Positions 29,001 to 29,711 of a DNA stretch of 64,000 nt are shown here, one piece after another (positions within the stretch are counted from its first letter, which is position 1; every line of letters begins with the position of its first letter). The notes under the pieces were generated by a model, which was not told the DNA's origin, did no database searches, and was given only the letters and a program-made list of their open reading frames with translations. Made by a program: the position numbers and the translations under genes. Source of the stretch: Psilocybe cubensis (Eukaryota); NCBI GenBank assembly GCA_017499595.2, contig CM039007.1:62001-126000 (forward strand), read 5' to 3'.

Positions 29001-29711
29001 ATGATTAACTTTATGACCCTTGCGTTGCTTGCCTTGGCAATACTTTACTCCGTCGCCCCAGCTGTAGGAAACGGCTTTGTGAATTTTCCGCCCAGTCGTC
29101 AAGCACGTTGCCTCTATGGTCAAGTACCTGACTGCGGTGACGTCCAGTACGAGCCACAGAGCGTCGAAGGTTTGGCAGGGTCCTTCAGCTGTAATGGAGA
29201 TGGAGAACGATTTCACGAACTTAATGATAATTCCTTGTTCGAGAACCTCCACTTCTCCGTCCCAGAAGACATTGAGAAACTTTCCTTCACTTGGGTGATT
29301 ACTGCGCCGCACAGGACCATAGTTTGGGAGTACTTTGTAATCACTCAGGACAACACCTTGCTATATTCAGATCAAGCATTCAACCAAACCCCTCCGGCAA
29401 CCCTCACCCATATGGTACCGCTGAATGGGATCAAAGGGGCACAGACAGTCCTTGCACGATGGACAATTGGCGATACTGAGAACGCTTTCTATTCCTGTGT
29501 CGATCTACTGATTGTAAATGCTGCCACTGCCACTGCCACTCCTGGAGCAGTCGCCACACCAGCGCCTGTTTCAATGCCCTCCGGCTTCCATGATTCGGCC
29601 AGACACGAGAATTCAGTCAACCGATCGGCCTATTCCAGTGCTGAATCGAGTCACACCGGTGCACAGAAAGCTATCCAAAAAAAATTTTACATCCAGGGTC
29701 CACATTCCTGA
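29001..29711 (+). CDS. AA10 (CBM33/Chitin_bind_3) LPMO-like secreted protein with a His1-to-Asn substitution
   Basis: Intronless; TATAAAA at 28861; signal peptide followed by NGFVNFPPSRQARC, CG.VQYEPQSVEG, FTW.ITAPHRT..WEYF, LARWTIGDTENAFYSCVD; Thr/Ala/Pro-rich tail. Confidence 0.9.
   Translation: MINFMTLALLALAILYSVAPAVGNGFVNFPPSRQARCLYGQVPDCGDVQYEPQSVEGLAGSFSCNGDGERFHELNDNSLFENLHFSVPEDIEKLSFTWVITAPHRTIVWEYFVITQDNTLLYSDQAFNQTPPATLTHMVPLNGIKGAQTVLARWTIGDTENAFYSCVDLLIVNAATATATPGAVATPAPVSMPSGFHDSARHENSVNRSAYSSAESSHTGAQKAIQKKFYIQGPHS

Follow-up and report, generated by a model that had tools for sequence, protein, structure and literature searches.

LPMO catalysis requires copper held by the amine and the ring of an N-terminal histidine (His1) and by a second histidine. 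In the mushroom Psilocybe cubensis, a gene for an AA10-type protein carries an asparagine codon at the His1 position, which raises the question of whether it is a decaying enzyme, a protein maintained for another role, or an error of the assembly. The gene is a 236-amino acid ORF (29001-29711) encoding a secreted AA10 protein, and lies in the window, i.e. the whole 64,000-nucleotide stretch that was analysed (contig CM039007.1, positions 62,001 to 126,000); we refer to it as the C10 copy (Table 1). The ORF matched Pfam LPMO_10 over residues 25-169 (E 1.8e-15; 58.5 bits against a curated cut-off of 23), and a P. cubensis record annotated as 'Lytic chitin monooxygenase' (P0001) is 100% identical to it across all 236 residues. 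The AlphaFold model of the mature domain (pLDDT 94.5) has the immunoglobulin-like beta-sandwich of AA10 proteins, with TM scores of 0.89-0.91 to 5AA7 and CBP21 in a fold search. The top match by both sequence (E 7e-32) and fold (TM 0.89/0.94, rmsd 1.5, 41% identity) was 5AA7, the chitin-active JdLPMO10A, presumably from Jonesia denitrificans, which shares the short domain type and the YEPQSVE, TAPH and NAFY motifs. The C10 copy differs from it in the exchange of His1 for Asn, in two short insertions typical of the fungal clade, and in having a eukaryotic promoter, a predicted 5'-UTR intron and a low-complexity tail. By its TAPH and YEPQSVE motifs, the protein falls in the chitin-active AA10 subtype, which is marked by a TAXH motif (as defined in the available text of PMC10617569) and a Y/W-E-P-Q-S surface.

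Table 1. Coordinates of the AA10 gene, its parts and its relatives. Positions are those of the window unless a contig or locus is named.
Feature	Position	Strand	Identity to C10 copy	Basis and remarks
AA10 gene with Asn1 (C10 copy)	29001-29711 (C10:91,001)	+
Predicted signal peptide, 23 aa	29001-29069	+		Homologue alignment; hydrophobic core (hydropathy maximum 2.74), end A-V-G
Asn codon at copper-brace His1 position	29070-29072	+		Alignment, sequence, read checks
Small JdLPMO10A-type AA10 domain	29070-29519	+		Pfam, PDB 5AA7, AlphaFold, fold search; His104, Phe163, Glu56, Asn161, Tyr50, Cys37/45/64/166 retained
C-terminal tail, Ala/Thr/Ser/Pro-rich	29520-29711	+		Paralogue alignment, codon model; common to C12a, C8 and C11; without CBM; relaxed on C10-copy branch
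TATA box, TATAAAA	28861-28867	+		Paralogue alignment; aligns with TATA-like motifs of the four other paralogues
Predicted 5'-UTR intron, GT...AG, 65 nt	28924-28988	+		Sequence prediction; shortly before ATG
Extent of homology with C12a locus	28182-30104		71-77% (to C12a, by segment)	blastn
Paralogue C12a	C12, 2.40-2.41 Mb		72%	His1
Paralogue C8	C8, 3.14 Mb		68%	His1
Paralogue C11 (L004)	C11:138708-139403		50%	His1
Paralogue C12b	C12, 2.40-2.41 Mb		51%	His1
AA10 remnant fragment	C12, between the two C12 genes
Streptomyces-type locus	L015:6001-6459
Streptomyces-type locus	L177:5965-6444

Codon 24 is AAC, and its Asn24 occupies the alignment column in which the homologues and the solved AA10s have His1. 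The remainder of the copper site is intact: the second brace histidine (His104, in TAPH), the axial phenylalanine (Phe163, in NAFY) and the second-sphere Glu56 are all present, as are Ala102, Asn161, Tyr50 and the four cysteines. An Asn at the predicted mature N-terminus with the second His and the Phe retained is what the earlier note had read from this gene, and these points were confirmed. An alternative signal cleavage that would yield His1 was rejected, the earliest histidine of the ORF being residue 72. A-to-I editing is unable to convert AAC to a histidine codon. The Asn24 protein is thus an AA10 member by sequence and fold that lacks the N-terminal histidine defining an LPMO. In other LPMOs, mutation of His1 was severe: TfAA10A H37A lost essentially all activity and showed greatly reduced substrate binding (PMC5708082, available text), Cryptococcus Cel1 H17A failed to complement (PMC10166503, available text), and a further His1 substitution abolished activity (PMC10835826, available text). 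Because these mutants lose activity, we infer by analogy that the Asn24 protein would not be an active LPMO. No published report of a Psilocybe AA10 or of an Asn1 AA10 was found in the open-access literature.

To learn whether relatives share the change, 78 other proteins were treated as fungal-type (27 with fungal names, the others assigned by similarity and tree position). His1 was present in 75 of them; two of the remaining three have no N-terminus and one has an unalignable start. No second secreted His1-less or Asn1 sequence or lineage was found among the 78, and the four other full paralogues of P. cubensis all keep His1, so that the loss is private to the C10 copy. The earlier note asked whether orthologues or paralogues share Asn1; the four full paralogues do not.

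Base 29070 could itself be wrong, the true codon encoding His. Six of 14 sequencing runs, from two studies that are possible sources of the assembly, contain all 115 sampled words of the stretch, and three runs hold a share of 0.93; the probability that no sampled word covers 29070 is about 0.03. Four of the 14 runs were aligned to the stretch. Two raw-read runs from a different study, X11 and X12, have 15 and 21 reads over 29069 without an alternative letter. Position 29070 does not appear among the variant rows listed for these two runs, a point that leaves the reading some room; the 13 A>C places in them are accounted for by paralogue C12a (10) and paralogue C8 (3), by reconciliation of tallies rather than by direct listing. 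In the divergent strain X7, the 72 variant places comprise 68 differences of C12a and four others, none of them A>C. In run X10 (share 0.06), a single 151-nt contig was found, which lies upstream of the gene and leaves 29070 uncovered. No RNA run was listed as containing the stretch, which speaks neither for nor against expression. An assembly error is unlikely, because reads and contigs of other studies show no His allele: neither X11, X12 nor X7 leaves an A>C that the paralogues do not explain. Taken with the six complete runs, this makes a true His codon extremely improbable, and the base proposed earlier as worth verifying held up, if by an indirect tally.

The coding sequence is uninterrupted, as noted before; the gene as a whole is probably not intronless, since an intron is predicted in its 5' UTR. 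The GTAAGC donor of this predicted intron is present in four of the five paralogues, and fungal-type loci from metagenomes show a comparable layout. The P0001 gene model uses the same acceptor with a donor further upstream, and carries 29 extra residues from an upstream exon ahead of the signal peptide (window 28614-28988). By alignment of the paralogues, the 29-residue exon would be a mis-annotated 5'-UTR intron.

Five full AA10 copies and one remnant are present in the P. cubensis genome, each less than 200 kb from the end of its contig (distances of 91, 139, about 150-160 and 196 kb). On C10, C11 and C12 the end in question bears telomere repeats. The C10 copy shares its flanks with C12a and therefore arose by segmental duplication. 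This duplication is old, since identity to C12a at third codon positions is only 63-67%. The 3' flank (29712-29931) is 87% identical to C12a, well over the third-position value; a conserved 3' UTR and gene conversion are the alternatives. Further segments common with the C12 AA10 neighbourhood lie at 40962-41444 (88%) and 43746-44306 (76-80%). In paralogue C11, Ala replaces the axial Phe and Glu stands in the place of Asn161, yet this copy keeps His1 and is under purifying selection (domain omega 0.14). Such an independent loss of the axial Phe under purifying selection may indicate that the active site is diverging more widely in the family.

Homologues were found in Psilocybe, Pholiota, Galerina, Hypholoma, Mycena and Athelia (Agaricales and Atheliales) and among many environmental sequences (best 120 of 787 and best 120 of 615 matches). 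Among these same matches no orthologue from another Psilocybe species was found, and the first canonical bacterial matches among those listed were from the Actinoplanes group, at about 49% identity. Trees were built with residue 1 removed (130 rows for a quick tree, 53 for a careful one). In these, the fungal-type AA10s form one clade (100/100), which includes seven Streptomyces-type rows and lies among small actinobacterial AA10 domains; the enclosing group has 98% SH-aLRT, its named rows are all Actinomycetota, and the Actinoplanes group is placed as sister with weaker support (86 SH-aLRT). All five copies of P. cubensis cluster together (96; 92/83). AA10 is stated to be missing from the Agaricomycetes examined in PMC10282164 (available text), and the family is therefore patchy in fungi. 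Nesting among bacterial AA10s together with this patchiness is the pattern of an ancient transfer from actinobacteria to Agaricomycetes. Marks of a recent transfer were not seen: the gene is closest to its fungal paralogues, its GC3 is 0.50 where a Paractinoplanes (Actinoplanes-group) relative has 0.97, and it comes with a TATA box and a predicted UTR intron. From the sequences, it is likely that the clade was acquired from Actinomycetota by an old transfer common to several genera.

Of the horizontal acquisition suggested by the earlier note, these results uphold a bacterial origin at depth; the transfer itself is old and common to six genera. Its own counter-argument, nesting in a wide, vertically inherited fungal clade, largely applies (six genera), with the reservation that the clade is patchy. 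Decay soon after a fresh transfer, also proposed there, does not fit, because a loss of His1 private to one of five paralogues followed duplication, not transfer.

Horizontally acquired AA10s in fungi are already known, as are brace-less LPMO-like proteins in AA9. An Agaricomycete AA10 cluster (8,299) has been described in Mycena, for which the authors suggest horizontal transfer (PMC11293592, available text). The Mycena proteins belong to the same clade as the C10 copy, but keep His1; in the available text neither a donor nor a Psilocybe expansion nor a His1-less copy is mentioned, and more cluster members may be given in its supplementary tables. UmAA10 of Ustilago maydis, a fungal AA10 with a C-terminal tail that is also suspected of horizontal origin, is active on fungal wall chitin (PMC10617569, available text), and by analogy the same activity is likely to be the role of the intact P. 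cubensis paralogues. UmAA10 has an intact brace and a domain of 171 residues, against about 148 in the C10 copy, and was probably acquired separately from the agaric AA10s, a distinction drawn from domain length, with UmAA10 outside the trees. That paper covers the AA10s of Ustilaginomycetes and, in its available text, never mentions agarics. A biochemical characterisation of the Agaricomycete clade was not found in the open-access literature.

The fungal-type clade has a side branch of eight actinobacterial-type proteins (P0047, P0049, P0123 and P0272-P0276), which have no signal peptide, no cysteines and, where the N-terminus is present, no His1. Their sources are Streptomyces griseus, S. 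rimosus, Streptomyces sp., Umezawaea and metagenomes, and the second His is kept in two of the eight. A further copy, in S. eurythermus (GC3 0.875), lies between ORFs that we read as transposase-like, and another sits on the S. rimosus linear plasmid pSRP1.1, near transposase genes. Among 401 sampled genomes of the genus the gene was found in one, the query genome itself. The seven Streptomyces-type rows placed in the trees fall within the fungal clade (97/90 together with three fungal-type rows). Fungal monophyly appeared in none of 200 bootstrap trees; in an AU test, fungal monophyly excluding these rows was not rejected (p 0.217). We favour, on this sequence evidence, a back-transfer from fungus to bacterium, which if true would be a rare transfer from eukaryote to bacterium. 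A cytoplasmic, non-enzymatic role of these proteins is possible. No report on them was found in the open-access literature.

Selection on the C10 copy was analysed with a codon model (own GY-type F3x4 code, 4 to 6 sequences). Because L095, the outgroup, may itself be decaying, it and C12b were dropped from one set of omega estimates. With the best topology, the catalytic domain had an omega of 0.24 on the C10-copy branch (profile interval about 0.125-0.46), which does not differ from the 0.16-0.19 of background and sisters (p 0.33-0.50) and is below 1 (p 1e-4 to 5e-4); averaged over the branch, the domain was thus under purifying selection. Over the whole gene, omega was 0.36-0.37 against 0.185-0.19 (p about 0.02; 0.017), an increase that C12a and C8 do not show. 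Signal peptide plus tail, a post-hoc split, gave 0.72 against 0.17 (p 0.0025), which is indistinguishable from 1, and this rise too is absent on the C12a and C8 branches. Under a topology that places C10 outside (C12a,C8), the domain omega is 0.41 and indistinguishable from 1 (p 0.29); this topology fits less well, by 2.7 log units for the domain and 4.0 for the full sequence, and the protein tree weakly joins C10 with C8. At 80 conserved sites the C10 copy departs from the fungal consensus 12 times, and the paralogues 9, 9, 12 and 17 times.

A pseudogene would be expected to show a disabling stop or frameshift, or an omega near 1; the copy has an intact frame and a constrained domain, beside a signal peptide and tail that cannot be told from neutral. 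In simulations with an indel rate derived from the flanks, an intact frame survived with a probability of 0.56, 0.23, 0.05 and 0.008 after 2, 5, 10 and 17% of the branch had been neutral. Frame survival drops fast with neutral time, and any death of the copy would therefore be very recent. The value of 0.72 for signal plus tail, if uniform death were its sole cause, needs at least about 17% of neutral time, so that simple death fails to explain both. If the C10 copy is dead, its relaxed tail requires a separate cause. Decay is common in this fungal-type family, as judged from three metagenome loci that were read (the near-identical L095, L096 and L135), of which one is intact, one has an internal stop and one has a frameshift.

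The explanation that we place ahead of the others, at about even confidence, is that the C10 copy is a redundant duplicate in a birth-and-death family that lost catalysis recently. Long ago, an agaric ancestor would have taken up a chitin-type AA10 LPMO gene from Actinomycetota; the family would then have expanded near chromosome ends in Psilocybe. Born by segmental duplication, with sisters on C12 and C8, the C10 copy would have been an ordinary secreted copper enzyme through most of its history, until a single substitution removed His1 and with it the histidine brace and oxidative cleavage of chitin. The intact sisters would cover the function, and the Asn1 allele may persist as an incipient pseudogene with no stop or frameshift yet. 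The loss would be recent because His104, Phe163, Glu56 and Ala102 are untouched, as compared with a second His kept in so few of the Streptomyces-type relatives that have long lacked His1. Turnover by birth and death is argued by the C12 remnant and by the two broken loci of the three read in metagenomes. The explanation is also supported by the singleton status of Asn1, by His1 in all four sisters and by the raised whole-gene omega. It is weakened by the constrained domain, by the intact signal peptide, cysteines, TATA box and splice sites, by the narrow time window, and by C11, which also diverged at the active site under purifying selection.

The same constraint can be read as maintenance. 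The protein may have dropped copper chemistry and kept its flat chitin-binding face, with a dispensable tail, to coat or shield the chitin of the fungus's own wall or to assist chitinases. A domain omega of 0.24 beside a relaxed tail and the improbability of a long neutral phase agree with this, as do Tyr50, Glu51, Gln53, Ser54, Thr106 and Asn161, binding-face residues named for SmAA10A and UmAA10 (PMC10617569, available text) that are all kept. His1-less precedents are LsAA9B, a fungal LPMO-fold AA9 protein without a histidine brace (PMC10354095, available text), and the Streptomyces-type clade, in which frames have stayed open at 62-87% identity. No CBM is attached to the C10 protein, however, no second secreted His1-less fungal sequence turned up among the 78, and its second His and Phe are uneroded, unlike those of the Streptomyces-type proteins. 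LsAA9B differs from it in belonging to AA9 and, reportedly, to a lineage with a conserved Arg1, whereas Asn1 is a singleton. Removal of His1 also greatly cut substrate binding in TfAA10A (PMC5708082, available text). We consider a maintained non-catalytic protein possible but doubtful, and between it and decay we favour decay.

The N-terminal amine, the Asn side-chain oxygen and His104 could alternatively chelate copper in a 2N1O site, giving a weak oxidase or a copper-binding protein that is not an LPMO. By geometry, the Asn side-chain oxygen sits where the His N-delta sits. Every other first- and second-sphere residue is kept in an intact modelled fold, but any recent point mutation would leave the site looking the same. 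A lineage with conserved Asn1 was not found, nor, in the open-access literature, a relevant Asn1 variant, and His1 substitutions (Ala where the residue is named) abolished activity in the available text of the studies cited above; an altered metal site is accordingly improbable. A recently transferred bacterial gene turned insecticidal or defensive protein, the defence role suggested by the earlier note, is very improbable. AA10 folds do include fern Tma12 and entomopoxvirus fusolin, and interaction genes typically lie in subtelomeric positions in several copies. Tma12 and fusolin lie far down the fold ranking, however, at 13-18% identity, where the chitin-active JdLPMO10A reaches 41%; several genera share the transfer, which is old, the base composition has ameliorated, and no data linking the fungal AA10 clade to toxicity were found. 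We further regard as decidedly doubtful the most far-reaching combination: a maintained secreted AA10 with an Asn1/His104 site (a chitin coat or an altered copper site) in a mushroom clade that shed the brace twice, once in the C10 copy and once after a round trip from actinobacteria to mushroom and onto plasmids and IS-flanked DNA of Streptomyces, with a cytoplasmic, disulfide-free, His1-less protein as the outcome.

If the C10 copy is merely decaying, recent loss in a redundant duplicate amounts to a minor annotation correction, since the 'Lytic chitin monooxygenase' record fails the defining His1 test, and illustrates how an enzyme family gained by horizontal transfer turns over by birth and death near the ends of mushroom chromosomes. 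If the protein is maintained, it is a naturally occurring exchange of the brace His1 for Asn, to be compared with almost identical active sisters, and offers a clean test of what the LPMO fold does without copper chemistry.

Three other features of the window were recorded. A KH-domain ORF (26561-27457, reverse strand; Pfam KH_1, E 6e-9) lies inside a mini-LTR element, upstream of the AA10 promoter by about 1 kb; it had no match in the DNA upstream of C12a or C8. A 1847-codon open frame (48724-54267, reverse strand) occupies a GC-rich skewed stretch and has no Pfam match. At 60194-60982, on the forward strand, a TET/JBP oxygenase domain was found (Pfam Tet_JBP, E 1e-18), which we take to be of the kind carried by KDZ-type transposons.
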